DNA from: Thermoleophilia bacterium
Lineage (GTDB): Bacteria > Actinomycetota > Thermoleophilia > Gaiellales > JAICJC01
Length of the DNA: 64,000 nucleotides
Reading direction: 5' to 3'
Assembly (NCBI GenBank): GCA_025934255.1
Contig: JAICYJ010000005.1
Coordinates: forward strand, 3,876 to 67,875
The notes under the pieces are model-generated. The model did not search any database and had not been told where the DNA came from. It saw nothing but the letters and a program-made list of their open reading frames with translations. The position numbers and the translations under genes were made by a program. Shown here one piece after another: positions 3,719 to 26,888 of the stretch; within the stretch, counting starts at the first letter, position 1, and each line of letters opens with the position of its first letter.

Positions 3719-5164
3719 ATGTTCAGCCTCGACACCGGCCGCGACGTGCTCACTACCGACCAGCTCGATCAGGTGCACGAGCGGGCGATGACGGTGCTCG
3801 AGGAGATCGGCACCGACGTGCGCCACCCGGCGGCGCTGGAGATGCTGGCCGGACTCGGGCAGAAGATCGACGGCGAGCGTGTCCACTGGGATCGCGAGTT
3901 CGTGATGGAGATGCTCGCCAGGGCGCCGCATGCGTTCACGCTGCGGGGTCGCAACCCCGAGCGAGCGGTGCGGCTGGGCGACTCAAAGCCGGTGCTGACG
4001 CCGGTGGGCGGCTCGCCCTTCTGCTCCGACCTCGAGCGCGGACGCCGGGACGGCACCTACGCCGACCACGTCGAGCTGATCAAGATGGCGCAGGCCGCCG
4101 ACCTGATCACGTGCAACCAGAGCGGCACCGTCGAGGCCGGCGATCTCGATGAGAACAGCCGGCACATGGACATGGACTACTCGGTGCTGCGGTACTCCGA
4201 CAAGCCGCACGTCTGTTACGGCACCTCCGGGCCGAAGGCGCGGGACGCCGTCGCCCTGGCGGCGATCGCCTGCGGCGGCCGCGAGGCGATCGAGCAGACA
4301 CCGGCGCTGATGGGGATCGTCAACCCCAACAGCCCGCTGGTCTGGGACTTCCTGATGGTGGACGCGTTGTCGGAATGGGCATCGGCAGGCCAGCCGGTGG
4401 TGATCACGCCGTTCCTGCTGGCCGGGGCGACGGCGCCGATCACGATCGCCTCCGGGCTGGTGTTGAAGGTGGCGGAGGCGCTGTCGGGCGTGGCGCTGGT
4501 GCAGGCGATCCGGCCCGGTACGCCCGCGCTGTTCGGATCGTTCTTCACGGCCGTGGACATGCGCACCGGCGGCCCCGCCTTCGGCACGCCCGAGTCGGTG
4601 CTGGGGACGCTCGCCGGCGGCCAGCTGGCACGGCGCTACGGCCTCCCCTACCGGGGTGGCGGCGGCCTCTGCTCGTCGAACTCGCTGGACATGGCGTCGG
4701 CGGCGGAGACGGCCATGACGCTGTGGGCGACGATGCTGTCCGGCTCGCACCTGGTGATGCACGCCGCGGGCTGGCTGGAGGGCGGCCTGACGGCGTCGTA
4801 CGAGAAGTTCGTGATCGACCTCGAGATGCTGCGGATGTTCGCGATGATCGACGAGGGCATCGACACCAGCGAGGAGCGGTTCGCGATCGATGCGATGCGG
4901 GAGGAGGGGCCGGGCGGGATGTTCCTGGCCGCCGACCACACGCTCGCGCACTTCCGTGAGTGGATGTTCATGAGCCCGCTGTTCCGCTCGCAGGCCTACG
5001 TGACCTGGCAGAAGCAGGGCTCCGCCACCACCGCCACGCTGGCCACGGCCGAGTGGAAGAAGCTGCTGGAAAGCTACGAGGATCCCGGCATCGACCCGGC
5101 CGTCGACGAGGAGCTGCAGGAGTACATGCAGCGGCGCAGGGCCGAGATCGAGGCGGCCCTCTGA
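3719..5164 (+). CDS. mttB: Trimethylamine methyltransferase (MttB) superfamily, non-pyrrolysine, copy 1
   Basis: LEEIG, NPNSPL, ITPFLLAGATAP, GGPAFGTPE, GLPYRGGGG, HAAGWLEGGL, YEKFVID motifs; uninterrupted ORF. Confidence 0.92.
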   Translation: MFSLDTGRDVLTTDQLDQVHERAMTVLEEIGTDVRHPAALEMLAGLGQKIDGERVHWDREFVMEMLARAPHAFTLRGRNPERAVRLGDSKPVLTPVGGSPFCSDLERGRRDGTYADHVELIKMAQAADLITCNQSGTVEAGDLDENSRHMDMDYSVLRYSDKPHVCYGTSGPKARDAVALAAIACGGREAIEQTPALMGIVNPNSPLVWDFLMVDALSEWASAGQPVVITPFLLAGATAPITIASGLVLKVAEALSGVALVQAIRPGTPALFGSFFTAVDMRTGGPAFGTPESVLGTLAGGQLARRYGLPYRGGGGLCSSNSLDMASAAETAMTLWATMLSGSHLVMHAAGWLEGGLTASYEKFVIDLEMLRMFAMIDEGIDTSEERFAIDAMREEGPGGMFLAADHTLAHFREWMFMSPLFRSQAYVTWQKQGSATTATLATAEWKKLLESYEDPGIDPAVDEELQEYMQRRRAEIEAAL

Positions 5165-7260
5165 TGGGCCGGGAGCAGCGTCACGACATCCTGTTCGAGC
5201 CGGTCCGGATCGGGCCGAAGACGCTGCGCAACCGGTTCTACCAGGTACCTCACTGCACCGGCTTCGGGGTCGAGAAGCCGTGGACGCAGGCGGCGTTCCG
5301 CGGGATGAAGGCGGAGGGCGGCTGGGCGGCGGTCTGCACCGAGTACTGCTCGATCAGCCCCGAGTCCGACGAGACGCCCTACGTGTCGGCCCGGCTCTGG
5401 GACGACGAGGACATGCGGGCGCTGCAGATGATGACCGACCGCGCGCACGAGCACGGCGCGCTGGCCGGGGTCGAGCTGTGGCACGGCGGCGTCTACGCCG
5501 AGGGCCGCGAGTCGCGGCTGCCGCAGCTGGCGCCGTCGCAGATCAGCAGCGACCTGGACAGCGTGGTGGTGCCAAAGACGATGGAGCTGGCCGACATCCG
5601 GCGAGCGCAGGGGGAGTGGGTGGCGGCCGCGAAGCGGGCACGCGGCGCCGGCTTCGACATCATCTACGTGTACGGGTCGCACACCTACCTGCCCACGCAG
5701 TTCCTGTCGCCTGTGTACAACCGGCGCAGCGACGCCTACGGCGGCAGCTTCGAGAACCGTGCGCGGTTCTGGCTGGAGGCGATCGAGCTGGTCAAGCAGG
5801 CGGTCGGCGACGATGTCGCGATCGCGGTGCGGATCGCAGCCGACACGCTGGAGCTGTCAGGGGTGCCGATCGAGGAGGGGCTCGAGTTCATCCGCGCGGC
5901 CGACCCGTTGGTCGACCTGTGGGACGTGGTGATCGGCTCGATGTGGGGGCCGGGGCGGCTCGACTCGGGCCCGTCGCGGTTCTTCGACCAGGGCTACCAG
6001 ATGACCTGGTCGGGCCGTGCTCGCGAGGCGACCGAGAAGCCGATCGTGGTGGTGGGCAGGTTCACCGACCCCGACCGGATGGCCAACCTGGTGCGGGGCG
6101 GTACCGTCGACCTGATCGGCGCGGCGCGGCCGTCGATCTCGGACCCGTTCCTGCCGGAGAAGATCGAGCAGGGCCGCTACGAGGAGATCCGGGAGTGCAT
6201 CGGCTGCAATGCCTGCTACTCGCGGTCGATCTGGGGCCGGCATCTGGGCTGCACGCAGAACGCCACCGCGGGCGAGGAGTACCGGCGCGGTTGGCATCCG
6301 GAGCGGTTCGACCGCGCCGCGAACGCCGACCGGGCGGTGCTGGTGGTGGGCGCCGGACCGGCCGGCATGGAGTGCGCCACGGTGCTCGGCAAGCGCGGCA
6401 TGGAGCTGGTGCACCTGGTGGACGAGGCCGACGACATCGGTGGCTGCATGAGCTGGATCACGCGCATGCCCGGCCTCGGGACGTGGGGCCACGTGGTCGA
6501 CTATCGCCGCGCCCAGATGGACCGGCTGGACAACGTCTCGCTGGGGCTCGGCACGCGGCTGTCGGCGGCCGACGTGCTCGACTACGGCGCCCAGATCGTG
6601 GTCGTCGCGACCGGTTCGCACTGGGCCGGCGACGGCATCAGCGGCGTCACGCGGCTGCCGATCCCCGGCGCGGATGCCACGCTGCCGCACGTGCTGACGC
6701 CGGAGCAGGTGATGGTCGACGGCAAGCGGCCGCCCGGCGGCCGGGTGGCGGTCGTCGACTACGAGGGCTACTTCGTCGGCTCGGCGCTGGCCGAGCAGCT
6801 GCGCAGCGAGGGATACGAGGTCGAGTTCGTGACCAGCCACGAGGCGGTCGCGCCCTACTGCGATCAGACGCTCGAGGGTCGGCCGGTGCGGGAGCGGCTG
6901 AACGCGATCCGGGTGCCGGTGCAGCGGGCGGTGGTGGTCGATCGGATCGACGAGGGCGGGATCGACCTGGTGGGCGAGTTCCAGGCGACGTCGCGGCTGG
7001 CGGTGGACGGCGTGGTGCTGGTCACGCAGCGGCTCTCGGACGAGGCCCTGTACGGCGAGCTGGCAGGCGACCCGGCCGCGCTCGAAGCGGCCGGGATCGA
7101 GGCGGTCTACCGGATCGGCGACTGCGTCGCGCCGCGCTTGATCGCGGACGCGATCTTCGACGGCCACCGCCTGGCGCGCGAGATCGACTCGCCCGACCCG
7201 GAGCGTCCGCTGCCCTACCTGCGCGAGCGGCCGCTGATGGCGGCAACGCCGGCCGTCTGA
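5164..7260 (+). CDS. tmd: Trimethylamine/dimethylamine dehydrogenase family iron-sulfur flavoprotein
   Basis: HDILFEPVRIGPKTLRNRFYQVPHC (flavinylated Cys), TEYC, YVYGSHTY, CIGCNAC...CTQNATAGEEYRRGWHPE, GAGPAG; ATG overlaps the upstream TGA. Confidence 0.9.
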   Translation: MGREQRHDILFEPVRIGPKTLRNRFYQVPHCTGFGVEKPWTQAAFRGMKAEGGWAAVCTEYCSISPESDETPYVSARLWDDEDMRALQMMTDRAHEHGALAGVELWHGGVYAEGRESRLPQLAPSQISSDLDSVVVPKTMELADIRRAQGEWVAAAKRARGAGFDIIYVYGSHTYLPTQFLSPVYNRRSDAYGGSFENRARFWLEAIELVKQAVGDDVAIAVRIAADTLELSGVPIEEGLEFIRAADPLVDLWDVVIGSMWGPGRLDSGPSRFFDQGYQMTWSGRAREATEKPIVVVGRFTDPDRMANLVRGGTVDLIGAARPSISDPFLPEKIEQGRYEEIRECIGCNACYSRSIWGRHLGCTQNATAGEEYRRGWHPERFDRAANADRAVLVVGAGPAGMECATVLGKRGMELVHLVDEADDIGGCMSWITRMPGLGTWGHVVDYRRAQMDRLDNVSLGLGTRLSAADVLDYGAQIVVVATGSHWAGDGISGVTRLPIPGADATLPHVLTPEQVMVDGKRPPGGRVAVVDYEGYFVGSALAEQLRSEGYEVEFVTSHEAVAPYCDQTLEGRPVRERLNAIRVPVQRAVVVDRIDEGGIDLVGEFQATSRLAVDGVVLVTQRLSDEALYGELAGDPAALEAAGIEAVYRIGDCVAPRLIADAIFDGHRLAREIDSPDPERPLPYLRERPLMAATPAV

Positions 7261-7503: not shown

Positions 7504-8319
7504 TCAGCTGGGCGTGATGCCGAGCCGGATCGTGTAGCCGATCAGCATCGGTCGCGGCTCGGGCAGCCGTTCCCGGGCGATGCGCGTGAGCGCGTCCATC
7601 GTCTCCTCCAGCTCCGGCGCGCGGCCTTCGAAGATCGCGGTCGGGCCTCCCAGCGAGTGGGCGAGGTCGGTCACCGCTTCCGCGTCGGCCGTCGTCTCGG
7701 CGTGGCAGTGCACCTCGCGCGCTAAGGCGAACAGCCCGCTCTCGCGCAGCCTGGCCACGTGCTCGCGCTTCGGCCACTGCGAGGCCCCGGCGTGGATGCC
7801 GAGCCGCTCCCGCGCCGCCCAGCGCACGTCGATCACCGCGGCGAAGGCCGCGTCGACCTGCGGCTCGATCACCGGCACGACGTCGTAGTCGTACGCGCCG
7901 AACACGCCGCCGGGACGGAGCACCCGCGCCACCTCGGGCAGCACCGCGGCCGGATCCATCCAGTGGAACGACTGCGCGCAGGTGACGATGTCGGCCGATC
8001 CGGCCTCGAGGCCGGTCGCATCGGCATAGGCCTCCACGAACGTGACGTTGGCTTCGGCGGTCGTCGCCCGCGCCCGGGCCAGCATCGCCGGATTCGCCTC
8101 GACGCCGACCACCCGCTCGGCGCGGGCCGCCCAGGCACGGCTCGAGAGCCCAGTGCCGCTGCCCAGGTCGACCACCAGCTGCGGCCGGCCGCCCGCGCAG
8201 CGTGTGAGCACGTCCAGCGCGACCGCCGGAGGACTGGGACGGGCACCGTCGTAATGGTCGGCGAACCCCTCGTTCGCGTACCCCGACCGCCCGATCAGAT
8301 CGCGCGAGAACGTGCTCAC
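7504..8319 (-). CDS. Class I SAM-dependent methyltransferase
   Basis: VVDLGSGTG motif I, VGVE, ADIVTCAQSFHW, RVLRPGG; GTG start 6 nt after TAGCAT. Confidence 0.88.
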   Translation of the reverse strand: MSTFSRDLIGRSGYANEGFADHYDGARPSPPAVALDVLTRCAGGRPQLVVDLGSGTGLSSRAWAARAERVVGVEANPAMLARARATTAEANVTFVEAYADATGLEAGSADIVTCAQSFHWMDPAAVLPEVARVLRPGGVFGAYDYDVVPVIEPQVDAAFAAVIDVRWAARERLGIHAGASQWPKREHVARLRESGLFALAREVHCHAETTADAEAVTDLAHSLGGPTAIFEGRAPELEETMDALTRIARERLPEPRPMLIGYTIRLGITPS

Positions 8320-8353: not shown

Positions 8354-8638
8354 ATGGCGGAGTACCGGATCACTTACTGGCGTGAGATCCCCTCGATGGT
8401 GACCGCCCGCGACGGTGCGGCCACGTCCAAGGCGGCGCTGCCCGACCGCTTCCAGGAGGCCATCGACGAGGCCGCCATGCGCCAGGGCATGGCCGGCTCC
8501 GACGCCTACCTGGAGCAGTGGCATCACGGAGCATGGGAGCCGGCGGACGGTACGCCCGACGAGCTGGTCGCCACCCTCTCGGAGCAGCTCGACAACGACT
8601 ACGACGCGGCGCGCCTGGAATCGCTGCTGGAGGTGTGA
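8354..8638 (+). CDS. Small conserved protein of the so-called 'virulence factor' (PF13769-like) family
   Basis: YWREIPSMV...LPDRFQEAIDEAAM...SDAYLEQW pattern; translationally coupled to the Hcy methyltransferase; start 8351 or 8354. Confidence 0.72.
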   Translation: MAEYRITYWREIPSMVTARDGAATSKAALPDRFQEAIDEAAMRQGMAGSDAYLEQWHHGAWEPADGTPDELVATLSEQLDNDYDAARLESLLEV

Positions 8639-9540
8639 TGGAACAGATCGCAACACTGCTGGGAGACACGCGGCCGGCGCTCAGCGACGGTGCCATCGGC
8701 ACCATGCTGCAGGCGGCCGGTCTCATGCCCGGCGCCTCCCCCGAGATCTGGAACGTCGAGCGGGCCGACGCCATGCGCGTGATCCACACCGCCTACGCCG
8801 ACGCCGGCGCGCGCCTGCTCACCACCAACACCTTCGGCGGCACCCGCCCTCGCCTGGCCCTGCACGGCCACGAGGATCGCGTGCACGAGCTGAACGAGGC
8901 CGGAGCCCGCATCGCCCGCGACGTGGCGGACGGCTGCGATGCGCTGGTGCTCGGCAGCATCGGCCCCACCGGCGACCTGATGGAGCCGCTGGGGCTGCTC
9001 AGCCACGACGACGCCGTCGACCTGTTCGCCGAGCAGGCCGGCGGCCTGGCCGCCGGCGGCGCCCACATCCTGCTGTTCGAGACGTTCAGCGACCTGGGCG
9101 AAGTGCGCGCCGGCGTCGAGGGGGCGCACCGCGCCGCACCCGACCTGCCCGTGGCCGTGACCATGACCTTCGACCTGAAGGGCCACACGATGATGGGTGT
9201 CAGCCCGTCCCAGGCGCTGGCCGAGATATCCGCGCTCGACGTCGAGCTGATCGGCGGCAACTGCGGCAGCGGGCCCGACGAGATCGAGGCCGTGATGGTG
9301 ACCATGTCCGCCGAGCGTCCGGACGGCGTGCTGCTGCTCGCTCAGAGCAACGCCGGCCTGCCGCAGCTGGTCGGCGACGAGTTCCGCTACGGCGGCACGC
9401 CGGAGGTGATGGCCGACTACGCCGTGCGCATGCAGGAGCTCGGTGTCGACGTGATCGGTTCATGCTGCGGCAGCACGCCCTCGCACACGGCCGCGATGCG
9501 CGAGGCGCTCGGCCTGCACGTCCAGACCGCGCGTGGATGA
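8638..9540 (+). CDS. Homocysteine S-methyltransferase domain protein (stand-alone MetH N-terminal/Bmt-like)
   Basis: LSDGAIGT, TTNTFG, GSIGP, LFETF, Zn ligands GGNCG and GSCCGS, SNAGLP. Confidence 0.9.
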   Translation: MEQIATLLGDTRPALSDGAIGTMLQAAGLMPGASPEIWNVERADAMRVIHTAYADAGARLLTTNTFGGTRPRLALHGHEDRVHELNEAGARIARDVADGCDALVLGSIGPTGDLMEPLGLLSHDDAVDLFAEQAGGLAAGGAHILLFETFSDLGEVRAGVEGAHRAAPDLPVAVTMTFDLKGHTMMGVSPSQALAEISALDVELIGGNCGSGPDEIEAVMVTMSAERPDGVLLLAQSNAGLPQLVGDEFRYGGTPEVMADYAVRMQELGVDVIGSCCGSTPSHTAAMREALGLHVQTARG

Positions 9541-9546
9541 TTGAAT

Positions 9547-9735
9547 CTAGCCCTCGATCGTGATCGACATGGTCGGGCACGCGTCCGCGGCCGCCTCCAC
9601 CTCGTCGCGCAGCGACTCGTCCACGGCCGCCTGGTAGCGCAGCTCCTGCGGCGACACCAGCTGGAACACCTCCGGGCACTCGATCATGCACTGCCCGTGG
9701 TGCTGGCAGGTCCGCTCGTCCACCACAACCCTCAT
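9547..9735 (-). CDS. P450-associated [3Fe-4S]-type ferredoxin
   Basis: CQHHGQC (CxxHxxC)...ACP; 62 aa; ATGA overlap with the P450 stop. Confidence 0.88.
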   Translation of the reverse strand: MRVVVDERTCQHHGQCMIECPEVFQLVSPQELRYQAAVDESLRDEVEAAADACPTMSITIEG

Positions 9736-10949
9736 CGCACGCGCTCTCGGTCGAACGCGATCGGCAGCTCCACCGGCCCCGTCAGCCCGCTCACGGGCCG
9801 CACCACCGGCTCCGCGGTGTAGCGCGGGTTCGGCATCCGGCGCGCGATCAGCGGTAGCGCCTCGCGCATGTCGATCCGTGCCAGCCAGTGCCCGATGCAG
9901 TGGTGCGCACCGCCGCCGAACCCGAAGTGGGGCGGCCGCTCGGCGGTGATGTCGAACCGCCCGTCCTCGCCCACCGCCAGCGGGTCGGTGTTGGCCGGGT
10001 ACGACAGCAGGTGCAGCGTGGTGCCCTCGGGCAGCGCCAGCCCGCCGAACTCCATGTCCTCGGTGGTGCGCCGCGTCGCCCACATCACCGTCGGGTTCCA
10101 GCGGATCAGCTCCTCGACCGCGTTCGGCGCCAGCTCCGGCCGCTCGGCCAGAAGCGCGCACTGGTCGGGGTGCTCGACGAACAGCTGCATCGCCAGCCCC
10201 AGCTGGTTCTTGGTCGTGTCCATCCCCCCGAACACGATCAGCGACACCATCGCCAGCAGCTCGATGTCCGACAGCGACCCCTGCTCGGCGTCGTGCGCCT
10301 GCACCAGGCTCGAGACGACGTCGTCGCGCGGCCGCACCCGCCGGTCGGCGATCAGCTCCTCCGACACCGCATACAGGTTCTGCAGCGCGTCCTCGATCCG
10401 GCCCTGGTGCTCGCGGATCGTGACGCCGAACGACAGCCCCAGGTCGGTCGACCATCGCGCCAGGTCGTGCCAGCGCGCCTCGTCCATGCCGATCAGCTTG
10501 CACAGCACCCGCGCAGCGTACGGCTCCGCGAACTGCGAGACGAACTCGCAGCTGCCCGCGGCCGCGTAGGCGTCGATCAGCTCGTCGGCCAGCGCCCGGA
10601 ACTCCGGGCCCATCCGCTCGATCAGCGTCCGCGAGAAGGCCGGGTTGGCCAGCTTGCGCAGCCGCCGGTGGTCGTCGCCCTCCTTGCTGAGCATGATCTC
10701 GGCCCACCATTCCGACAGCAGCCCCTGCTCGATGCCGTTCTGGGCCGGCCAGGCAAAGCTGCCCTGCCGCAGCCGCCGGTCCTTCAGAAGCGCGCTCACC
10801 TCGTCGTAGCGCAGCACCGCCAGGCCGAAGTTGGTGCGCGCCCACCAGCTCTGCTCGCGCGCCGCGGCCACGGCCGCGGACGAGGCCGAGAAGAACGGAT
10901 CCGAGATGTCGAACGACGGGACATCGGCGGTGTCGATCGAGAGCGTCAT
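9732..10949 (-). CDS. Cytochrome P450, CYP151 (PipA/MorA)-like
   Basis: FGGMDTT I-helix, EELIR, FGFGGGAHHCIG heme motif; GLAVLRY, LRQGS.AWPA.NG, FAEPYAARV, TERPPHFG-type segments recall CYP151A. Confidence 0.9.
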   Translation of the reverse strand: MTLSIDTADVPSFDISDPFFSASSAAVAAAREQSWWARTNFGLAVLRYDEVSALLKDRRLRQGSFAWPAQNGIEQGLLSEWWAEIMLSKEGDDHRRLRKLANPAFSRTLIERMGPEFRALADELIDAYAAAGSCEFVSQFAEPYAARVLCKLIGMDEARWHDLARWSTDLGLSFGVTIREHQGRIEDALQNLYAVSEELIADRRVRPRDDVVSSLVQAHDAEQGSLSDIELLAMVSLIVFGGMDTTKNQLGLAMQLFVEHPDQCALLAERPELAPNAVEELIRWNPTVMWATRRTTEDMEFGGLALPEGTTLHLLSYPANTDPLAVGEDGRFDITAERPPHFGFGGGAHHCIGHWLARIDMREALPLIARRMPNPRYTAEPVVRPVSGLTGPVELPIAFDRERVR

Positions 10950-10965
10950 GCCCCGGGATTCTGCC

Positions 10966-12405
10966 TCAGTCGCCAAGCTCTTTCCGGCGCCGGGTGACGT
11001 AGTCGGCCAGCTCCTGGCGCAGCTCCGGGTTGATCGCAGGCGGCTCGTACTGCTCCAGCCGCTCGCGCCAGATCTCGCCGGCCCGCGCGGTCGCGTCGTG
11101 CTCGCCCAGCCGCTTCCAGCGCTCGAAGTTCTCCGTCGACGACAGCAGCGGCCGGTAGAAGCAGTCGCGGAACCGCTCCAGCGTGTGCGCCGCGCCCAGG
11201 AAGTGCCCACCCGGGCCGACCTCCTCGTGCGCCCCGAATGCGAGCGAGGCCTCGTCCACCTCGAGCGGGGTGAACTCGACCTTCAGCATCCGCAGCACCT
11301 CGACGTCGACGATGAACTTCTCGTAGCACGAGACCAGGCCCGACTCCAGCCAGCCGGCCGAGTGCATGACCCAGTTGGTGCCGGCCAGGAAGGTCGGGAT
11401 CATGGTCATGCAGGCCTCGTAGGCCGACTGCGCGTCGACCGTCTGGCTGGACGTGAAGCCGCCGCCCGACCGCCACGGCAGCCCGAAGTGACGCGCGATC
11501 TGGCCGGTGCAGAACAGGCCGGTGGCCGACTCCGGCGTGCCGAAGCTGGGCGACCCCGACTGCATGTCGGTGTTCGAGAGGAACGACCCGAAGATCACCG
11601 GCGCGCCCGGCCGCAGCAGCTGCGCCAGCGCGATCCCCGCCAGCGCCTCGGCCATCTGCTGGACGAGCGCCGCCGGGATCGTCACGGGCGACATCGCCCC
11701 CATCAGCAGGAACGGCGTGATCACGACCGGCTGGCCGGCGCGCACGTACTCGAACATGGCCGCCAGCATGCGGTCGTCGTAGCGCAGGGGCGAATTGACG
11801 TTGATCAGCGCGATCACGCCCGGCGTGCGCTCGATCGACTCGCGGCCGCCGAGCAGCATCTCGGTCATGCGCAGCGAGTCGGCCGCATTGGGCCCTGAAG
11901 TGACGGATCCCATGTAGGGCTTGTCGGTCAGGGTCTGCAGCGCGAACACCATGTCCAGGTGGCGGGAGTCGAGCGGCCGGTCGTTGGGCTCGCAGATGGT
12001 GCCGCCGGCCGAGTCGAGCTCGTCGAAGGACTGGGACAGCATGGTGAACCGCTCGAAGTCCTGCATCGTGGCGTCGCGGCGGACGTCGCCCTCGCGCACG
12101 AACGGCGGCCCGTAGACCGACGCGAATGCCATGTGATCGCCGCCGATGTGGATGCTGTGCTCCGGGTTGCGGGCCTGCACGTCGAACTCGTGCGGCGCCT
12201 TCGCCACCTGCTCGAGCACGAAGTCGGGGTCGAGGAAGACCTTGTCGCCGTCGGTCTTCTGGCCGGCCTGGGCGAACACCTCGACCGCCTCCGGCAGGAT
12301 GAACTCGACGCCGATCTCCGAGACGATCCGCCGCCAGCCCGCATCCAGGGTGACGATCGCCTGCTCTGACAGAATCTCGTAGCGCGGCATCCGGTTGACG
12401 AACAT
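10966..12405 (-). CDS. mttB: MttB superfamily methyltransferase, non-pyrrolysine, copy 2
   Basis: NVNSPL, ITPFLLMGAMSP, SGSPSFGTPE, GLPWRSGGG, HSAGWLESGL, YEKF; GAGAGG RBS before ATG 12405. Confidence 0.92.
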   Translation of the reverse strand: MFVNRMPRYEILSEQAIVTLDAGWRRIVSEIGVEFILPEAVEVFAQAGQKTDGDKVFLDPDFVLEQVAKAPHEFDVQARNPEHSIHIGGDHMAFASVYGPPFVREGDVRRDATMQDFERFTMLSQSFDELDSAGGTICEPNDRPLDSRHLDMVFALQTLTDKPYMGSVTSGPNAADSLRMTEMLLGGRESIERTPGVIALINVNSPLRYDDRMLAAMFEYVRAGQPVVITPFLLMGAMSPVTIPAALVQQMAEALAGIALAQLLRPGAPVIFGSFLSNTDMQSGSPSFGTPESATGLFCTGQIARHFGLPWRSGGGFTSSQTVDAQSAYEACMTMIPTFLAGTNWVMHSAGWLESGLVSCYEKFIVDVEVLRMLKVEFTPLEVDEASLAFGAHEEVGPGGHFLGAAHTLERFRDCFYRPLLSSTENFERWKRLGEHDATARAGEIWRERLEQYEPPAINPELRQELADYVTRRRKELGD

Positions 12406-12417
12406 TCGTCCTCTCCC

Positions 12418-12451
12418 TAAGATCTTAATATGTGGAACGATCGTTCCACAT
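12418..12451. promoter_or_regulatory. Divergent promoter with perfect 22-bp palindrome (candidate IclR operator)
   Basis: ATGTGGAACGATCGTTCCACAT (12430-12451) is a perfect palindrome; TAAGATCTTA (12418-12427) gives a TAAGAT -10 on both strands. Confidence 0.7.
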
Positions 12452-13232
12452 GATGAGTCGAAAAGCAATGACCGGAACCCAGGCGATCGATCGTGCCGCC
12501 CAGCTGCTCGTCCTCGTCGTCGAGAACGAGTCGTCGAGCAGCGTCGGCGAGCTGGCCGAGGCGGCCGGACTTCCCAAGAGCACCGTATCGCGCGCAGTGT
12601 CGGCGCTCGAGCGGCAGGGCCTGGTGCAGCGAAGCAGCGCCCGCGGCAGCATCCGTCCGGGGCCGGTGCTGCTGGGCCTGGCCCGGCGCGGCGTCGGCGA
12701 GCAGGACATCGCCGAGCTGTGCCGCGAGGCGCTCGAAAACCTGGCCGACGCCACCGGCGAGACCGTCGACCTGGCGGTCGCCGTGCCCGGCGGCTCCGAG
12801 CAGTACATCGCCCAGGTCGACAGCCGCCACATCCTGGGCACCACCAACTGGGTGGGACGGCGCCTGCCCCACCACTGCACCGCGGTCGGCAAGGTGCTGG
12901 TCGCGTTCGGCGCGGCGCGCCTGCAGCGGGGCGCGCTGGAGCGGCTCACGCCGGACACCATCACCGATCGCGACACGCTGTCGGCAGAACTGGATACGGT
13001 GCGGGCATGCGGATATGCGACCGCCGTGGGCGAGCTGGAGCCGGGCTTGGTGGCCGTTGCGGCGCCGGTGCTTGACGCCGACGGCCGGGCGGTGGCAGCG
13101 ATCAGCATCTCGGGGCCGCAGTTCCGGATACCGAGCGATCGGCTGGACGGGTTTGGCAAACTCCTGACGAAGGAGACGGAAACGCTTTCGGCGCGCCTGG
13201 GATACCGGCCGGCCGGGGAGGGAGCAGCATGA
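12450..13232 (+). CDS. IclR family transcriptional regulator
   Basis: QAIDRAAQLL HTH, GLPKSTVSR, GETVDL, LPHHCTAVGK, ELEPGLVAVAAPV, AISISGP. Confidence 0.9.
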   Translation: MMSRKAMTGTQAIDRAAQLLVLVVENESSSSVGELAEAAGLPKSTVSRAVSALERQGLVQRSSARGSIRPGPVLLGLARRGVGEQDIAELCREALENLADATGETVDLAVAVPGGSEQYIAQVDSRHILGTTNWVGRRLPHHCTAVGKVLVAFGAARLQRGALERLTPDTITDRDTLSAELDTVRACGYATAVGELEPGLVAVAAPVLDADGRAVAAISISGPQFRIPSDRLDGFGKLLTKETETLSARLGYRPAGEGAA

Positions 13233-13897
13233 CCACCGACGAGATCCTGCAAGGCCTGTTCGACAACACGCTGATCGGAAACGCGCCGGCCGTCAAGGAC
13301 CTCACCAACGAGGGCCTGGCCATGGGCATGGACCCCGAGACGCTGCTCTACGACGCCCTGATCCCGTCGCTGGAGGAGGTGGGCGCCCGCTTCGAGCGCG
13401 GCGACTTCTTCGTCCCGGAGATGCTGATTGCCGCGCGGGCAATGCAGGGCGCGCTGGACATCCTGCGCCCACTGCTGGCAGAGACCGGCGCCAAGCCGAT
13501 CGGCACGTTCGTGATGGGCACCGTCAAGGGCGACGTGCACGACATCGGCAAGAACCTGGTCAACATCATGCTCGAGGGCGCCGGCTTCACCGTCTACGAC
13601 CTGGGCGTGAACGTGGCGCCTGAGAAGTTCGTGGAGCAGGTGCAGGAGCACGAGCCGGACATCGTCGGCTTCTCGGCCTTCCTGACCACCACCATGCCGA
13701 TGTTCAAAGCCAACATCAACGCGCTCGAGAAGTCGGGCCTGCGCGACCGCGTGATCGTGATGGTGGGCGGCGCGCCGGTGACCCAGGAGTACGCCGACGC
13801 GGTCGGCGCCGACGGCTACGCCGCCGACGCGTCCACCGCGGTGCGCCTCGCCAAGGCCCTGATCGAGAACCGCCGATCGGCGGCTGCGCCGGCATGA
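13229..13897 (+). CDS. Cobalamin-binding corrinoid protein (MttC/MtgC/MetH cap plus B12 domain)
   Basis: FERGDFFVPEM cap; GTVKGDVHDIGKN (DxHxxG), DLGVNV, SAFLTTTM, VGGAPV. Confidence 0.93.
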   Translation: MTTDEILQGLFDNTLIGNAPAVKDLTNEGLAMGMDPETLLYDALIPSLEEVGARFERGDFFVPEMLIAARAMQGALDILRPLLAETGAKPIGTFVMGTVKGDVHDIGKNLVNIMLEGAGFTVYDLGVNVAPEKFVEQVQEHEPDIVGFSAFLTTTMPMFKANINALEKSGLRDRVIVMVGGAPVTQEYADAVGADGYAADASTAVRLAKALIENRRSAAAPA

Positions 13898-14775
13898 CCC
13901 AGGCCGTCTCCGACCGGTTGCGGTCGCTGGCCGCCACGGCCAGCATCGAGGTGACGCCGCGCCACGCGGCCGCCGTGACCGAGCTCGACGGCGTGTTGCC
14001 CGCCGGGACATCGGTCTACATCACGGCGCTTCCCGGAGCCGACCCGTTCGACCTGGTGACGGCTGCCGCGACCATCCGCGCCGCCGGCCACGTGCCGGTG
14101 CCGCACCTGACGGCGCGCGCCATCGCCGGCGACGAGGCGCTGGATGCGCTGCTCTCGCAGCTCCGCGAGCGCGCCGTGGTCGACGACGTGCTCGTGATCG
14201 CGGGCGGAGGGGCGACCGTCGTCGGCGACTACCACAGCTCCATGGACGTGCTGCGGTCGGGCCTGCTGGAGCGGCACGGCATCATTCGCGCCGGCGTCGC
14301 CGGGCACCCCGAGGGCAGCCCCGACATCTCACCCGAAGCGATCCTCGAGGCCCTGGTCGAGAAGAACGCCTTTGCCGCCGCATCGGCGATCGAGCTTCGC
14401 ATCGTCAGCCAGTTCGCGCTGGCCGCCGAGCCCTACGTGGCGTGGGAGCGCGGGCTGCGCGAGGCGGGAAACCGGCTGCCGGTGGTGGCAGGCATCCCCG
14501 GCGTGACCTCGCCTCCGTCGCTGCTCAAGTTCGCGCTGGCCTGTGGCATCGGCCCCTCCGTGGAGGTGCTCCGCAAGCAGTCGGGCGGGTTGCTGAAGCT
14601 GGCAACGACCCGGCTGTGGCGGCCCGACCAGCTGGCCGAGGGCATCGCCCGGTCGACCGTCGACGATCCCGGCAGCCTGATCCAGGGGCTGCACCTGTTC
14701 CCCTTCGGCGGGGTCGAGCGGTCGGCCCGATGGCTGGCCGAGATGCGCACCGCGCCGGCCGCGGTGTCGGCATGA
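13894..14775 (+). CDS. metF: Methylenetetrahydrofolate reductase family protein
   Basis: SIEVTP, VYITAL, VPHLTAR, VAGHPEG, IVSQF, GLHLFPFGG. Confidence 0.78.
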   Translation: MTQAVSDRLRSLAATASIEVTPRHAAAVTELDGVLPAGTSVYITALPGADPFDLVTAAATIRAAGHVPVPHLTARAIAGDEALDALLSQLRERAVVDDVLVIAGGGATVVGDYHSSMDVLRSGLLERHGIIRAGVAGHPEGSPDISPEAILEALVEKNAFAAASAIELRIVSQFALAAEPYVAWERGLREAGNRLPVVAGIPGVTSPPSLLKFALACGIGPSVEVLRKQSGGLLKLATTRLWRPDQLAEGIARSTVDDPGSLIQGLHLFPFGGVERSARWLAEMRTAPAAVSA

Positions 14776-14793
14776 GAGCCGAAAGGACGCGGA

Positions 14794-15666
14794 ATGCAGA
14801 CCACCATTGAGTCGCGGTCACGCACGGTCGTGATCGGGGACGGCGCGCCGTTCTGCGTGATCGGCGAGCGCATCAACCCCACAGGCCGAAAGGCGTTCCA
14901 GGCGCAGCTGCAGGCCGGCGACCTGTCCCAGCTCGAGATCGACGTGGCCGAGCAGGTGGCCGGCGGCGCCGACGTGCTGGACGTCAACGTGGGCGATCCG
15001 CTGGCCGACGAGATCGAGCTGATGCGGGCGGCCGTGCCGATGGTGCAGGGCCTGACCGACCTGCCGCTGTGCATCGACTCCTCCATCATCGAGGCGCTCG
15101 AGGCCGGCCTGGGAGCCTACGAGGGAAAGGCGCTGGTCAACTCGGTCACCGGCGAGGACGAGCGGCTGAACCTGATCCTGCCGATCGTGGCCCGCCACGG
15201 TGCTGCGGTGATCGGCCTCGCCAACGATGACGAGATCCCGATGGAGCCGGAGCGGCGGCTGGAGGTGGCCCGCAAGATCGTCTCGGTCGCCGGCGACCAC
15301 GGCATCCCGCCGCAGGACGTCGTGATCGATCCGCTGGCGATGCCGGTCGGCGCCGAGCCGCGCGCGGTCACGCTGTTCCTGGAGACGGTGCGGCTGATCC
15401 GCGACAACCTGGGCGTGAACATGACCTGCGGCGCCAGCAACACCTCGTTCGGGCTGCCCGGCCGCCACGCCCTGGGCGCCGCCTTCCTGGCCGTCTCGCA
15501 GAGCCACGGGCTGACCAGCGCCATCATGGACGCGCGCGCCCGCGAGTGCGTCGAGTCGGTGCGAGCCACCGACTTCCTGCTCGGCCAGGACGAGTGGGGC
15601 GCCCGCTGGATCGCCGCGCACCGGGCCAAGCTGGCCGCCCAGGCCGCGCAGGCCGCGACAAGCTAG
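14794..15666 (+). CDS. Pterin-binding methyltetrahydrofolate:corrinoid methyltransferase (MetH pterin domain/AcsE-like)
   Basis: VIGERINPTG, LDVNVG, LCIDSS, LVNSV, IDPL, CGASNTSFGLP. Confidence 0.88.
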   Translation: MQTTIESRSRTVVIGDGAPFCVIGERINPTGRKAFQAQLQAGDLSQLEIDVAEQVAGGADVLDVNVGDPLADEIELMRAAVPMVQGLTDLPLCIDSSIIEALEAGLGAYEGKALVNSVTGEDERLNLILPIVARHGAAVIGLANDDEIPMEPERRLEVARKIVSVAGDHGIPPQDVVIDPLAMPVGAEPRAVTLFLETVRLIRDNLGVNMTCGASNTSFGLPGRHALGAAFLAVSQSHGLTSAIMDARARECVESVRATDFLLGQDEWGARWIAAHRAKLAAQAAQAATS

Positions 15667-15668
15667 CC

Positions 15669-17528
15669 GTGTCGGTGAACGCCGAGACGATCGAGCCAGG
15701 CACCGGCCGCGTCCGGCTGACGTTCGCGCCCGACGGCGGCGAGGTGCGCGTGCCGGCCGGCACCACCGTGTTCGACGGGGCCAGCTGGAACGGCATCGCC
15801 ATCGACTCGACCTGCGGCGGCCACGGCACCTGCAAGAAGTGCAAGGTGCGGATCACCGACGGCGATGTGCCGGTCGACACGCTGGATCCGCGCGCCTTCA
15901 GCCCCGACGAGCTGCGCGGCGGCTGGCGGCTGGCCTGCCGCGCGATCGCCACCCACGACCTCGCCGTCGAGGTGCCGCCGCTGCAGACCCGCCCCAAGGC
16001 GGCGCTGGTCGGCGTCGGCCGCCACGTGATCCTGCGCCCGTCCGTGCAGAAGCGCTACCTGGAGCTGAAGGAGCCGTCGCTGGAGGACCAGGCGTCCGAC
16101 ATGGAGCGCGTGGTCCATGCCGTCGAGGACTTCGAGCTGCGGGTGGAGCTGGGCGCCGCTCGCGGCATCGGCCGCACCCTGCGGTCGTCCGACTTCAAGG
16201 TCACTGCCGTCATCTGCGACGACGTGCTGATCGACGTCGAGCCCGGTGACACCACCGAGCGGCGCCACGCGATCGCCTTCGACCTGGGCACGACCACGGT
16301 GGTGGCGACGCTGCTCGACCTCGCCACCGGCCAGCCGCTGGCCGTGCGCTCGATGCTGAACCGCCAGCAGCCGTTCGGCGCCGACGTGATCTCGCGCGTG
16401 TCGGCCACGATGATGGACCCGGACGCGCTGGAGATGCTGCAGCAGCGGGCGCATGAGACGATGAACGGCCTCGCCGGCGAGGTCTGCGAGGAGGCCGGCC
16501 TGTCACCGGCGGAGGTGTACGAGATCGTGGTCTGCGGCAACGTCACGATGATGCAGCTGGCGCTGGGCATCGACCCCGAGCCGCTGGGCATGTCGCCGTT
16601 CATCATCACCGCCCGGCGGCTGCCGCCGGCGGTTGCCTCCGACTTCGGCGTGCGCGTGCACCCGCGCGCGCCGGCCGCCGTGTTTCCCGCTCTGGGCGCC
16701 TACGTGGGCGGAGACATCGTGGCCGGCATGCTCGCCACCGGCCTCACCCGCGACCGCCGCGTGCGCCTGTTCATCGACGTCGGCACCAACTCCGAGATCG
16801 CACTCGGTTCCAGCGAGCGGGTGGTCGCGACCGCCGCACCGGCCGGCCCCGCCTTCGAGGCCGCCCAGATCCGCTGCGGCATGCGCGCCGCTGAGGGCGC
16901 GATCGAGGGCGTCGCGATCAGCGGCGAGGAGATGACGCTGGAGGTGATCGGCGACGCCGCGCCGGTCGGCATGTGCGGCTCCGGGCTGGTGGATGCGGTC
17001 GCCCAGCTGGTGTCGGCGGGCCTGCTCGACCACTCCGGCCGCTTCATCCCCGACGAGGACGCCGCCGAGCTGCACCCGCAGCTGAGCACGCGGCTGGTGA
17101 AGGTGGGCGAGGAGCGGGTGTTCGTGCTGGCATGGCGCGGAGACGACCCAGCGAACGCGATCTACCTGTCGCAGCGCGACGTGCGCGAGCTGCAGTTCGC
17201 CAAGGCCTCGATCGCGACCGGATGGCGGATATTGATCAAGGAGCTCGGCCTGGACGAGGACGAGATCACCCAGGTGCTGCTGGCCGGCAGCTTCGGCAGC
17301 TACCTCTCGCCGGCCAGCGCCGTGCGCATCGGCCTGGTGCCGAAGCTGGCGCTGCCGCGCATCATCTCGGCCGGGAACGTGGCCGGCGAGGGCGCCAAGA
17401 TGGCGGCGCTGTCGCTGCGGGAGCGGGCGGCAGCCGACGCCATCCTGGATGAGGTCGAGTACGTGGAGCTGTCCGGGCGGGCAGACTTCAACGACATGTT
17501 CATGGACGAGCTGGCGTTCCCGGGATGA
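15669..17528 (+). CDS. ASKHA (DUF4445/RACo/RamA-like) ATP-dependent corrinoid reductive activase with N-terminal 2Fe-2S
   Basis: CGGHGTCKKC...RLAC; FDLGTTT, FGADVISR, DVGTNSE, AGPAFE, GMCGSG, DVRELQFAK, LAGSFG. Confidence 0.9.
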   Translation: MSVNAETIEPGTGRVRLTFAPDGGEVRVPAGTTVFDGASWNGIAIDSTCGGHGTCKKCKVRITDGDVPVDTLDPRAFSPDELRGGWRLACRAIATHDLAVEVPPLQTRPKAALVGVGRHVILRPSVQKRYLELKEPSLEDQASDMERVVHAVEDFELRVELGAARGIGRTLRSSDFKVTAVICDDVLIDVEPGDTTERRHAIAFDLGTTTVVATLLDLATGQPLAVRSMLNRQQPFGADVISRVSATMMDPDALEMLQQRAHETMNGLAGEVCEEAGLSPAEVYEIVVCGNVTMMQLALGIDPEPLGMSPFIITARRLPPAVASDFGVRVHPRAPAAVFPALGAYVGGDIVAGMLATGLTRDRRVRLFIDVGTNSEIALGSSERVVATAAPAGPAFEAAQIRCGMRAAEGAIEGVAISGEEMTLEVIGDAAPVGMCGSGLVDAVAQLVSAGLLDHSGRFIPDEDAAELHPQLSTRLVKVGEERVFVLAWRGDDPANAIYLSQRDVRELQFAKASIATGWRILIKELGLDEDEITQVLLAGSFGSYLSPASAVRIGLVPKLALPRIISAGNVAGEGAKMAALSLRERAAADAILDEVEYVELSGRADFNDMFMDELAFPG

Positions 17529-18103
17529 CGACGGCCGTGATCGCATGCGGCGCGCTCGCCTTGCACGTGAACGCCATCGCCGAGCGGCGCGGCTGGGAGA
17601 TCGACGTGCACCCGCTGCCGCCCGAGCTGCACAACCGCCCGGAGCAGATCGCGCCCGCCGTCGGCCGTCTGCTGGACGAGCTGGCCTGCCGCTACCAGCG
17701 CGTGGCGGTCGCCTACGCCGACTGTGGCAGCTACGGCGCGCTCGACCAGGAGCTCCGCCGGCGCGGCGTCGAGCGGCTGGAGGGCGACCACTGCTACGAC
17801 GTGTTCGCGAAGCCGGAGGTGGCGGAGGCGATGGCCGAGCAGCCCGGCACCTACTTCCTGACCGATTTCCTGGCGCGCACCTTCGACCGCACGGTCTGGC
17901 GGTCGCTCGGCCTCGACCGCCATCCCGAGCTGCGCGACGACTACTTCCACTCCTACACCCGCGTCATCTGGCTGGCGCAGCGGCGCACGCCCGAGCTGCT
18001 GGAGCTGGCCGAGCGGGTGGCGGCCATGCTGGGGCTGCCGCTGGAGGTGCGCGACGTGGGCGAGTCGGGGCTGGAGGCACAGCTGGAGCGGCTGGCGGGA
18101 TGA
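17525..18103 (+). CDS. DUF1638 domain protein
   Basis: VIACGAL, LHNRPE, AYADCGS, DHCY, YFLTDF pattern; coupled to RACo. Confidence 0.78.
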   Translation: MTTAVIACGALALHVNAIAERRGWEIDVHPLPPELHNRPEQIAPAVGRLLDELACRYQRVAVAYADCGSYGALDQELRRRGVERLEGDHCYDVFAKPEVAEAMAEQPGTYFLTDFLARTFDRTVWRSLGLDRHPELRDDYFHSYTRVIWLAQRRTPELLELAERVAAMLGLPLEVRDVGESGLEAQLERLAG

Positions 18104-19230
18104 GCGACGCGACCTCGATGCGCGCGGCGCTGCTGCCCGCTCCGGGCACGCCGCTGCGCGTGGTCGAGCTCGACCTGGCCGCGCCCGGCCCCGGTGAGGT
18201 GCTGGTGCGGCTGCGCTCCAGCGGCGTCTGCCAGGACGACCTGAATCTGCTCGACGGCACGGTCGACGTGCCTGCCCCGGTCGTGCCCGGCCACGAGGGT
18301 GCCGGCGTCGTCGAGGCGCTGGGCGAGGGCGTTCAGGGGCTTGCGCCCGGCGACCACGTGGCGCTGTCCTGGGCCCCCTACTGCGGCAGGTGCGAGGAGT
18401 GCCTGCGCGACCTGCCGCACCTGTGCGGCACGGCCTGGCCGCTGATGCTGGCCGGCGGCCTGCTCGACGGCACCACCCGGCTCCGCTTCGGCGGGGCGGA
18501 GGTGCACCACTACTGCTTCCTGTCCACCTTCGCGGAGCGCGCGGTGGTGCCGGCCCGGTCGTGCGTCCAGATCCCGGCCGACGTGCCGTTCGAGGTGGCG
18601 GCGCTGCTCGGCTGTGCGGTGACCAGCGGCGTCGGCGCCGTCTGGCGCACCGCCGGCGTGCGGCCGGGAGAGCGGGTGGCGGTGATCGGCACCGGCGGCA
18701 CCGGGCTCTCGGCCGTGATGGGCGCGGTCGCCTCGGGTGCGTCGCAGGTGATCGCCGTCGACCGCCGGCACGAGCGCCTCGAGCGCGCCCAGCAGCTCGG
18801 GGCAAGCGCCGTCGTGGTGTGGCAGGGTGAGCCGGAGCAGGTGGCCGAGGCCGTGGTGTCGGCCAGCGGCGGCGGCGTCGACTACGCCATCGACTGCACC
18901 GGGCGGCCCGGTCCGATGCGGGCCGCGTTCCTGTCCACGCGCAAGCGGGGAGCGGCCGTGATGGCCGGCATCCCGCGCGCCGAGGCCGAGCTGACGGTGC
19001 CGGCGCGGTCGATCCCGCGCATGGAGCGACGGGTGCTGGGATCGATCTACGGGTCGGCCCGGCCCGACCGCGACTTCCCGCTGATCCTCGACGCCTACCG
19101 GCGGGGACGGCTGCCGCTCGATCGGCTGATCTCACACCGGCTGAGCCTGGACGAGGTCGGCGTCGGCATCGACGCCGTGCGCTCGGGCGATGCAACGCGG
19201 GTGGTGCTCGACCTGGGAGGCGACGCGTGA
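18100..19230 (+). CDS. Zn-dependent medium-chain alcohol/aldehyde dehydrogenase
   Basis: GVCQDD, GHEGAG, structural Zn CGRCEECLRDLPHLC, LGCAV, GTGGTG. Confidence 0.88.
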   Translation: MSDATSMRAALLPAPGTPLRVVELDLAAPGPGEVLVRLRSSGVCQDDLNLLDGTVDVPAPVVPGHEGAGVVEALGEGVQGLAPGDHVALSWAPYCGRCEECLRDLPHLCGTAWPLMLAGGLLDGTTRLRFGGAEVHHYCFLSTFAERAVVPARSCVQIPADVPFEVAALLGCAVTSGVGAVWRTAGVRPGERVAVIGTGGTGLSAVMGAVASGASQVIAVDRRHERLERAQQLGASAVVVWQGEPEQVAEAVVSASGGGVDYAIDCTGRPGPMRAAFLSTRKRGAAVMAGIPRAEAELTVPARSIPRMERRVLGSIYGSARPDRDFPLILDAYRRGRLPLDRLISHRLSLDEVGVGIDAVRSGDATRVVLDLGGDA

Positions 19231-20179: not shown

Positions 20180-20623
20180 GATGGCGTCGCGGAGCGCGAG
20201 CCGTTGGGCCCGCCTCTGATCGGGGCGCTGCTGCGCATGCCCGTCGACGCGGTGCGGCGGCGAATGATCGAGCGGCTGCACGAGCACGGGTTCGACGACA
20301 TCGACCAGGCCCACCTCACCGTGCTGCGCTATCCCGGCCCGCAGGGCCGGCGCCCGTCCGACCTGGCGGCGGAGTTGGGCATGAGCAAGCAGGCGCTCAA
20401 CTATCAGCTGGGCGAGCTGGAACGGCGCGGCTATCTCGAGCGCCGGCCCGACCCCGAGGATCTCCGCTCCCGGCGGATCGTGCTGACACGGCGCGGCGTC
20501 GCCGCTGCCCACGTGATCCGTGACGCCGTGGCCGAGCTCGAGACGCTGTGGGCGCGGGAGCTGGGAGCGAAGCGGTACGCGCAGCTGCGGGGCCTGCTGG
20601 TCGAGCTCAACCGCGTGATCTAA
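20147..20623 (+). CDS. MarR family transcriptional regulator
   Basis: SDLAAELGMSKQA, LERRGYLERRPDPEDLRSRRIVLT winged helix. Confidence 0.88.
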   Translation: MNQETSSSRFTDGVAEREPLGPPLIGALLRMPVDAVRRRMIERLHEHGFDDIDQAHLTVLRYPGPQGRRPSDLAAELGMSKQALNYQLGELERRGYLERRPDPEDLRSRRIVLTRRGVAAAHVIRDAVAELETLWARELGAKRYAQLRGLLVELNRVI

Positions 20624-26841: not shown

Positions 26842-26888
26842 GTGGTCTCTCCCGCGCAGGTGCGCGTGGGGGTTGCCGGGAGGGCTCC

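Follow-up and report, generated by a model that had tools for sequence, protein, structure and literature searches.

We analysed a 64,000-nucleotide stretch of DNA (the window) from an uncultured soil actinobacterium of the order Gaiellales, whose genome (G000) is 95% complete. A group of genes in it is built around a single corrinoid protein, MtgC. From gene content, motifs, synteny, distribution and homology to studied systems, we infer catalytic steps, substrates and a dual role for this locus, and consider it quite probable that it is an MtgBCDE-type cobalamin methyl-transfer hub that serves both betaine demethylation and methionine synthesis. It is a known design in a new host, with lineage-specific parts, and the model of such a methyl switchboard is already published (PMC12478193, PMC5764234). 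Details that are absent from the cited papers are fusions of a small PF13769 protein, a gene pair for an MttB-family methyltransferase (MttB-1) and a homologue of trimethylamine dehydrogenase (TMADH), and a 22-bp palindrome.

The window has a G+C content of about 70%, and genes were called via third-position G+C (GC3) and then by family. GC3 and profile searches recovered every gene named in an earlier, sequence-only reading of this DNA at the place given there, each with coding-type GC3. The functional island covers about 3.7-27.5 kb, which is much larger than the stretch first described (8354-17528). Beyond that stretch it adds a second MttB, the TMADH homologue, a DUF1638 protein, a Zn-dependent alcohol dehydrogenase (Zn-ADH), and electron-transfer flavoprotein (ETF), Fe-S and dimethylglycine dehydrogenase (DMGDH)-type genes.

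The corrinoid core and its motifs

The genes that carry the argument are listed here by window position, with CH3-THF standing for methyltetrahydrofolate.

8354..8638, + strand: PF13769 ('Virulence_fact') protein, 94 aa, translationally coupled to mtgE (PF13769, E 3e-19)
8638..9540, + strand: MtgE-like homocysteine-binding methyltransferase, the homocysteine module of MetH as a standalone protein (PF02574, E 9e-62)
10966..12405, - strand: MttB-2, probable glycine betaine:corrinoid methyltransferase, MtgB-like (PF06253, E 3.5e-184)
12432..13232, + strand: IclR-family regulator, first operon gene (PF09339 + PF01614)
13229..13897, + strand: MtgC-like corrinoid protein with B12 cap and B12-binding domain, the putative methyl-carrying hub (PF02607 + PF02310)
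13894..14775, + strand: type-4 (S6MTHFR-like) methylenetetrahydrofolate reductase, MTHFR (PDB 7XG9, E 6.5e-44)
14794..15666, + strand: MtgD-like pterin-binding methyltransferase, predicted to move methyl between CH3-THF and the corrinoid in either direction (PF00809, E 6e-25)
15669..17528, + strand: RACo/RamA-like reductive activase, 2Fe-2S ferredoxin plus ASKHA ATPase (Fer2, RACo_linker, Raco_middle, RACo_C_ter)
17525..18103, + strand: DUF1638 protein (PF07796, E 2.5e-24)
18100..19230, + strand: Zn-dependent alcohol/formaldehyde-dehydrogenase-like enzyme, last gene of the coupled operon (ADH_N + ADH_zinc_N)

The homocysteine-, cobalamin- and pterin-binding modules of methionine synthase (MetH) are separate genes in this locus, which bears out the central claim of the sequence-only reading. 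As in canonical MetH (Escherichia coli, Thermotoga maritima), the homocysteine, folate, cap and B12 domains match stretches of the metH profile TIGR02082, and the cysteine triad that binds zinc and the DxHxxG motif are present. The former is made up of Cys209 and Cys276/277 in MtgE and the latter reads DVHDIG at residues 102-107 of MtgC. By contrast with canonical MetH, the domains are four separate proteins, and the corrinoid protein resembles those of the methylamine type more than it does the B12 domain of MetH. The MetH activation domain (PF02965) was not found in the genome and repair would depend on the ATP-dependent RACo-type activase, as had been proposed earlier when an ASKHA protein was suggested to replace the S-adenosylmethionine (SAM) domain. 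The RACo domains of this protein are accompanied by an intact 2Fe-2S motif of four cysteines (Cys51, Cys57, Cys60, Cys92), and its start is most likely the GTG at 15669 rather than 15546 or 15663.

MtgC is the sole corrinoid protein of its kind in the genome, which encodes four MttB paralogues. MtgD scores 294 bits against NF005719, over the cut-off of 259. Five of the six junctions from iclR through mtgC, metF (the MTHFR gene), mtgD, raco and the DUF1638 gene to adh are 4-nt stop/start overlaps or gaps of a few bases, and the sixth (metF-mtgD) is 18 nt. Because these junctions are so tight, we take iclR to the Zn-ADH gene to be one seven-gene operon. The PF13769 gene and mtgE are also coupled, by a TGATG stop/start overlap.

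A closely similar set of proteins has been studied in marine bacteria. In Ruegeria pomeroyi, MtgB (of the MttB family), MtgC, the bidirectional MtgD and MtgE form one system with MetF2, RamA and DUF1638, and mutants in mtgC or mtgD are methionine auxotrophs that also fail to use glycine betaine (Mausz et al. 2025, PMC12478193). Fitness data from Phaeobacter inhibens point to a three-part MetH that works with a RamA-like protein and DUF1638 (Price et al. 2018, PMC5764234). The locus of Sinorhizobium meliloti holds bmt, MttB, a cobalamin-binding protein, DUF1638, a PF13769 'virulence factor', MTHFR_C, MTHFR, MtgD and an ASKHA protein. Eight core proteins of the window are each 32-46% identical to their S. 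meliloti counterparts over nearly their full length; the set spans bmt (44% for MtgE), MttB, the corrinoid protein, DUF1638 (41%), PF13769, MtgD (46%) and ASKHA. Similar gene sets lie on replicons of Azoarcus and Paracoccus. A reduced set of corrinoid protein, ASKHA activase and DUF1638 is present in a haloarchaeon, on Halomicrococcus plasmid NZ_CP100467.1 (L073), where genes for an MtrH-like methyltransferase and DMGDH-like oxidoreductases adjoin it. Such a set points to a common logic in which another module serves on the pterin side.

The window shares with R. pomeroyi, P. inhibens and S. meliloti an MttB donor, separate corrinoid, pterin and homocysteine modules, an in-cluster MTHFR, a ferredoxin-ASKHA activase, DUF1638 and several MttB paralogues per corrinoid protein, and with S. 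meliloti and Azoarcus the presence of PF13769. The sequence-only reading had already noted a similar layout in Rhodobacterales/Rhizobiales. The window differs from these Mtg systems in its host, a soil member of the Actinomycetota, in its MTHFR, which is S6MTHFR-like type 4 where theirs are MetF2 or of the MetV/MetF type, and in having everything, including mtgE, in one island with an IclR regulator. It also has extra genes (the MttB-TMADH pair, a cytochrome P450, a SAM-dependent methyltransferase and the Zn-ADH), and cobalamin synthesis genes were not found in its genome. PF13769 is coupled to mtgE here, whereas in S. meliloti and Azoarcus it goes with the metVF-mtgD genes.

The likely donor enzyme is MttB-2. 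Its ORF has no in-frame stop, and we therefore regard it as a non-pyrrolysine member of the family; its start is most likely the ATG at 12405. Against PDB it matches 4YYC from S. meliloti (E 1e-124) and 2QNE/9YCE, which is MtgB of Desulfitobacterium hafniense (E 1e-119). Four residues of the D. hafniense protein bind glycine betaine, Tyr97 and Phe356 through cation-pi contacts and Arg312 and His348 at the carboxylate (PMC13080624). Three of these are kept in MttB-2, with Tyr119 for Tyr97, Arg333 for Arg312 and His369 for His348. Besides these residues, the window shares with the D. hafniense glycine betaine:THF system (MtgB/MtgC/MtgA; THF, tetrahydrofolate) the logic of a corrinoid protein with a pterin methyltransferase; it differs in that the host is aerobic and of high G+C, a homocysteine exit is present, and Gly takes the place of Phe356. 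The residue pattern of MttB-2 is the same as that of the S. meliloti protein, and mttB-2 divergently adjoins iclR-mtgC throughout the order. Glycine betaine is the probable substrate, a view supported by the conserved linkage of the mtg core, in several genera, to DMGDH, ETF and Fe-S genes.

The in-cluster MTHFR points to the fate of the methyl group. Its match 7XG9 is the first-defined member of type 4, S6MTHFR of Sphingobium lignivorans SYK-6, an MTHFR that oxidises CH3-THF (PMC11868366). Enzymes of this type pair with demethylases that produce CH3-THF, including the corrinoid enzymes CmuAB of Methylorubrum extorquens CM4 (PMC11868366). They carry three signatures, Leu-Pro in loop beta2-alpha3, Phe..Cys in helix alpha8 and Pro-Phe-Gly-Gly in loop beta8-alpha11, and these motifs (TxLPG, F..C and PFGG) block NADH and favour oxidation of CH3-THF (PMC11868366). 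The window protein keeps all three (L46-P47, F213/C217 and P270-F271-G-G) and is predicted to oxidise CH3-THF, in keeping with the oxidative direction assigned to it earlier. It shares with other type 4 enzymes the signature motifs and the pairing with a CH3-THF-producing demethylase, and differs in having an MttB/corrinoid system as its partner in place of LigM, DesA or Dmt. The main text of PMC11868366 mentions neither Actinomycetota nor MttB. In four relatives (G030, G017, G085 and G185) the same operon slot is filled by a different MTHFR of about 310 aa, of which the G030 copy matches PF02219. Such non-orthologous replacement indicates that the slot needs MTHFR activity.

These features suggest the following model. 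MttB-2 would move a methyl group from glycine betaine onto the Co(I) of the single MtgC, and similar transfers from other betaines are probably the task of MttB-1 and of two MttB paralogues encoded elsewhere in the genome. MtgD would pass the methyl group from MtgC to tetrahydrofolate, after which the type-4 MTHFR would oxidise CH3-THF to CH2-THF for energy and one-carbon supply. Running in reverse, MtgD could load MtgC from CH3-THF, and MtgE with its PF13769 partner would take the methyl group from methyl-MtgC to make methionine. Cobalt that has been oxidised to Co(II) would be repaired by the ATP-dependent RACo/RamA-like activase together with DUF1638, with no SAM-dependent activation domain involved. 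The use of one corrinoid hub by MttB, folate and homocysteine modules, as put forward in the sequence-only reading, is supported by the families, motifs and synteny seen here and by homology to an experimentally studied system.

Methionine synthesis or betaine catabolism alone

The sequence-only reading had pointed to metH and metE as the genes to look for elsewhere in the genome, and no full-length copy of either was found. Matches to TIGR02082 in the 95%-complete genome are separate and partial, none of them over the cut-off, and a profile search of the genome gave no MetE. We extended this comparison to 41 genomes of the order, 21 of which are of high quality. Full-length MetH occurs in about 10 of the 41 and canonical MetE in none; a core-MetE-like protein, with PF01717 only, occurs in 14. 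Of the high-quality genomes, 15 of 21 have no MetH and all 15 of these carry the split modules. Seven of the 15 (G009, G015, G025, G027, G030, G031 and G033) also have no core-MetE-like gene. For comparison, about 70% of marine MtgBCD carriers have no MetH (PMC12478193). The split modules are thus kept where MetH is missing, which mirrors the marine data and supports a biosynthetic role. As far as methionine synthases can be recognised, most genomes of the order appear to rely mainly or entirely on the split system.

Several observations weigh against our interpretation. The best curated match of MtgE is the betaine-homocysteine methyltransferase (BHMT) equivalog NF005718 of NCBIfam, though its 299 bits fall short of the 338-bit cut-off, and mtgE lies outside the mtgC operon in a small transcription unit of its own. 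Two other possible methionine makers are encoded in the genome, a core-MetE-like protein (PF01717 only) and a YitJ-like fusion of homocysteine methyltransferase and MTHFR. Scanning the window with Rfam gave no riboswitches, and neither a SAM nor a B12 riboswitch marks the locus as biosynthetic. Searches of the genome for CobS, CobN, CbiB and CobQ gave nothing beyond a weak CobQ-like match; since these cobalamin synthesis genes were not found, B12 is probably imported and the organism is probably a B12 auxotroph. In MttB-2, Phe356 of MtgB is replaced by Gly377. MttB-1 and the 4YYC-type protein of S. meliloti likewise have Gly at this position, and all three carry a Trp four residues upstream. 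In S6MTHFR, Arg78 buttresses Leu48 and Asp107 binds the pterin (PMC11868366), and neither is kept in the window MTHFR, where Ala76 and Gly105 are aligned to them; an Arg lies one residue earlier and the local alignment may be off. The window MtgC shares 45% identity with the characterised MtgC of Alphaproteobacteria and falls outside its clade.

Some of these points are what would be expected if the locus were catabolic only. In that case the corrinoid operon would demethylate betaines to yield CH3-THF, the PF02574 protein would be a co-located, B12-independent homocysteine methyltransferase of the BHMT type or of the type that uses S-methylmethionine or SAM, and methionine would come from that enzyme, the core-MetE-like protein or the YitJ-like fusion. 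The BHMT match, the position of mtgE outside the operon and the two other candidate genes fit this idea. The scores do not, because MtgE is under the BHMT cut-off and reaches just 68 bits against the MmuM-type model, for which the cut-off is 215. The S. meliloti 'Bmt' on which the BHMT name is based has also been reinterpreted as MtgE, a module of a corrinoid system (PMC12478193). PF13769, coupled to mtgE here, is fused elsewhere to MtgE or to RACo, and this coupling and these fusions tie MtgE to the corrinoid machinery. In addition, the seven high-quality relatives without MetH, MetE or a core-MetE-like gene retain the split modules. On balance we regard a purely catabolic locus as unlikely, and favour a hub with both roles.

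Two half-size MetE-like (PF01717-only) genes were seen in the genome, at G000:C52:20600-21649 (L007) and G000:C50:125043-126167 (L008). A sulfotransferase gene adjoins the first of them, which recurs in 14 of 41 relatives and may encode a methionine synthase of a folate-independent or B12-sparing kind. MesX (PF08908) gave no match in this genome, but gave none in the control genomes either, so that this negative carries no weight.

Distribution and origin

The sequence-only reading had left open whether this layout reached the Actinomycetota by cross-phylum transfer or is an unrecognised actinobacterial pathway. A recent transfer gains no support from our data. Within the order, MtgC proteins from four families share 78-100% identity with that of the window, and those from another order of the class 79-81%, and the core synteny (mttB-2 divergent from iclR-mtgC-(MTHFR)-mtgD-raco-DUF1638) holds across genera. 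An MtgC-like protein (E <= 1e-35) was detected in 123 of 401 sampled Actinomycetota genomes. The closest homologues, as well as 80 loci fetched with a TMADH query, are from Gaiellales/Thermoleophilia metagenome-assembled genomes.

A tree of MtgC gave a similar picture. It is unrooted, is based on one short protein and contains six labelled non-actinobacterial sequences; R. pomeroyi is represented by S. meliloti, Paracoccus and Terrarubrum as stand-ins. The window MtgC sits in a clade with SH-aLRT support of 99 whose labelled members are all Actinomycetota. A separate clade holds Sinorhizobium, Paracoccus, Terrarubrum and Azoarcus together with a second actinobacterial lineage that includes two Gaiellales. 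These two genomes, G026 (L040) and G034 (L065, G034:C1:2115000-2134999), carry a second, proteobacterial-type mtg cluster with an MtgC that is 50% identical and the gene order mtgC-DUF1638-PF13769-mtgD-raco-mttB-MTHFR. Both genomes also carry full-length MetH, and the order thus harbours two Mtg lineages side by side.

Recent horizontal acquisition from Alphaproteobacteria (Rhizobiales or Rhodobacterales) would account for the close likeness in gene content to the S. meliloti, Paracoccus and Azoarcus loci, and the second MtgC lineage (G026, G034 and many other Actinomycetota) does nest beside proteobacterial sequences. Yet the alphaproteobacterial proteins are just 32-46% identical to those of the window, and the G+C of the locus is the same as that of its flanks. 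Together with the clade, the identities within the class and the conserved synteny, this means that a recent transfer is not supported, and we judge it very improbable. These sequence comparisons are better explained by an actinobacterial pathway, experimentally undescribed, that has been conserved vertically within the order and class.

Lineage-specific parts, regulation and neighbouring genes

Among the parts of the island, the PF13769 protein and the MttB-1/TMADH pair may be undescribed. Natural fusions of PF13769 to the N-terminus of MtgE, about 440 aa long, were found in several sources, and on a Terrarubrum plasmid (L069:10251-12533) PF13769 is fused N-terminally to Fer2-RACo. S. meliloti and Azoarcus have a separate gene for it, located upstream of metVF-mtgD. 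AlphaFold2 (AF2) modelled the window protein with a mean confidence (pLDDT) of 90 and a natural PF13769-MtgE fusion, also confidently, with 86. No usable match to a solved structure was obtained in a PDB sequence search, with Foldseek (best E 0.37) or in a wide VIA-align search (best Z 3.2), and a literature search found no mention of the family. An apparent fusion of a SAM-dependent methyltransferase to PF13769 (P0274) was discarded because it looks frameshifted. Since PF13769 can be fused to either partner, is coupled to mtgE here and has a confident fold with no solved match, we propose that it is an accessory or docking subunit on the corrinoid hub. Its role may be to recruit both the reductive activase and the homocysteine module to the corrinoid protein, or to keep the separate homocysteine and folate modules together.

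The second of these parts consists of two genes.

3719..5164, + strand: MttB-1, non-pyrrolysine MttB-family methyltransferase, about 43% identical to MttB-2 (PF06253, E 5e-168)
5164..7260, + strand: TMADH homologue, amine dehydrogenase with flavin mononucleotide (FMN) and 4Fe-4S (PDB 1DJN, E 1e-219, full length)

The stop of MttB-1 overlaps the start of the TMADH-like gene, so that this pair is also translationally coupled. MttB-1 keeps the equivalents of Arg312 and His348 of MtgB and has Gly for Tyr97; with the carboxylate-binding residues kept and this aromatic residue replaced, its substrate is probably another betaine. The TMADH homologue aligns over its full length with TMADH of Methylophilus methylotrophus W3A1 (1DJN/2TMD) and keeps Cys30 (the FMN link), Tyr60, Ser74, Trp105 and the CxxCxxC cluster motif. 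For the aromatic bowl (Trp264/Trp355), Trp residues lie 2-3 positions off the aligned columns, beside gaps, where the alignment is shifted. The two proteins also share ETF genes nearby, and differ in that the window homologue is in an operon with a non-pyrrolysine MttB paralogue.

MttB-1 and the TMADH homologue are adjacent in about 39 species-level Gaiellales/Thermoleophilia genomes, mostly with gaps of 2-26 nt. The MttB-1 partner is present whenever the TMADH homologue is at least 74% identical and, with one exception (L135), missing beside homologues that are 61-65% identical. Elsewhere the pair usually stands alone between housekeeping genes, and these flanks give no clue to the substrate. 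One MttB-1-TMADH fusion (L108) was set aside as a likely frameshift artefact, being seen in one of 39 loci and having junk sequence at the junction. The pair may be a two-step module, in which a B12-dependent first demethylation of a carboxylated quaternary amine is followed by flavin-dependent oxidative removal of the next methyl group. That PF13769 is a docking or adaptor module and, at the same time, that the pair is a two-step demethylation module, both of them undescribed, is a tentative proposal that we think has somewhat less than an even chance of holding in both its parts.

Upstream of mtgC, the regulator and a conserved palindrome suggest how the core is controlled.

12430..12451, no strand: 22-bp perfect palindrome ATGTGGAACGATCGTTCCACAT in the divergent mttB-2/iclR promoter (found from the sequence)

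The stop of iclR overlaps the start of mtgC (ATGA), and iclR lies upstream of mtgC in all relatives examined. The palindrome occurs once in the window, where 0 occurrences are expected, and overlaps the annotated GTG start of iclR; the true start of this gene may be an ATG at about 12448-12468. Its arms, TGGAAC-N4-GTTCCA, are kept at the same place in six relatives (G011, G007, G017, G022, G085 and G185) while the spacers vary, and they are conserved across the family and class. The palindrome is likely an IclR operator, and IclR bound to it would control the divergent mttB-2 and iclR-mtgC-metF-mtgD-raco-DUF1638-adh units.

The other genes of the island are as follows.

7504..8319, - strand: class I SAM-dependent methyltransferase, divergent from PF13769-mtgE (PF08241, E 6e-22)
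9732..10949, - strand: cytochrome P450, 16 nt downstream of mttB-2 (PF00067)
20620..22869, - strand: Fe-S oxidoreductase with two CCG domains and 4Fe-4S (PF02754 + Fer4)
23561..24409, - strand: ETF subunit (PF01012, E 9e-29)
24322..26910, - strand: dimethylglycine/sarcosine dehydrogenase-type enzyme (DAO + FAO_M + GCV_T)

The set of DMGDH-type, ETF and Fe-S genes downstream is the usual continuation of glycine betaine catabolism, which these genes would complete here. The DMGDH-type gene is also linked to the mtg core in G085, G185 and G034. In relatives, too, the Fe-S oxidoreductase gene keeps synteny with the genes for ETF and the DMGDH-type enzyme, and its product probably takes electrons from ETF. 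No credible frame could be assigned in the interval 22870-23560, which separates the Fe-S oxidoreductase gene from that of the ETF subunit, and the starts of the neighbours are uncertain; a second ETF subunit is probably encoded there. A GntR regulator is also among the downstream genes.

Against the NCBIfam model CpaM ('corrinoid protein-associated methyltransferase'), the SAM-dependent methyltransferase has a weak score of 45 bits (cut-off 180), and its position between the TMADH gene and PF13769-mtgE is the same in the closest relatives. The P450 has an intact heme motif (FGGGAHHCIG) and occurs in this genus and its closest relatives only; next to its gene, no ferredoxin that could serve as a partner was seen. 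The best NCBIfam matches of the Zn-ADH are the N,N-dimethyl-4-nitrosoaniline (NDMA)-dependent alcohol dehydrogenase, class III alcohol dehydrogenase and mycothiol-dependent formaldehyde dehydrogenase, all under their cut-offs, and its place after DUF1638 is kept in family f1.

Our results extend a 2025 finding in marine Proteobacteria, that a shared B12 protein serves betaine demethylation and methionine synthesis, to abundant and uncultured Gaiellales of soil. Three additions to the model are suggested by this locus: a type-4 MTHFR as the folate outlet, a PF13769 subunit, and an MttB-TMADH pair for a second substrate. The compact single island is a convenient gene set for reconstitution. For the biology of these bacteria, a hub of this kind would link the turnover of osmolytes in soil with methionine supply and B12 cross-feeding.

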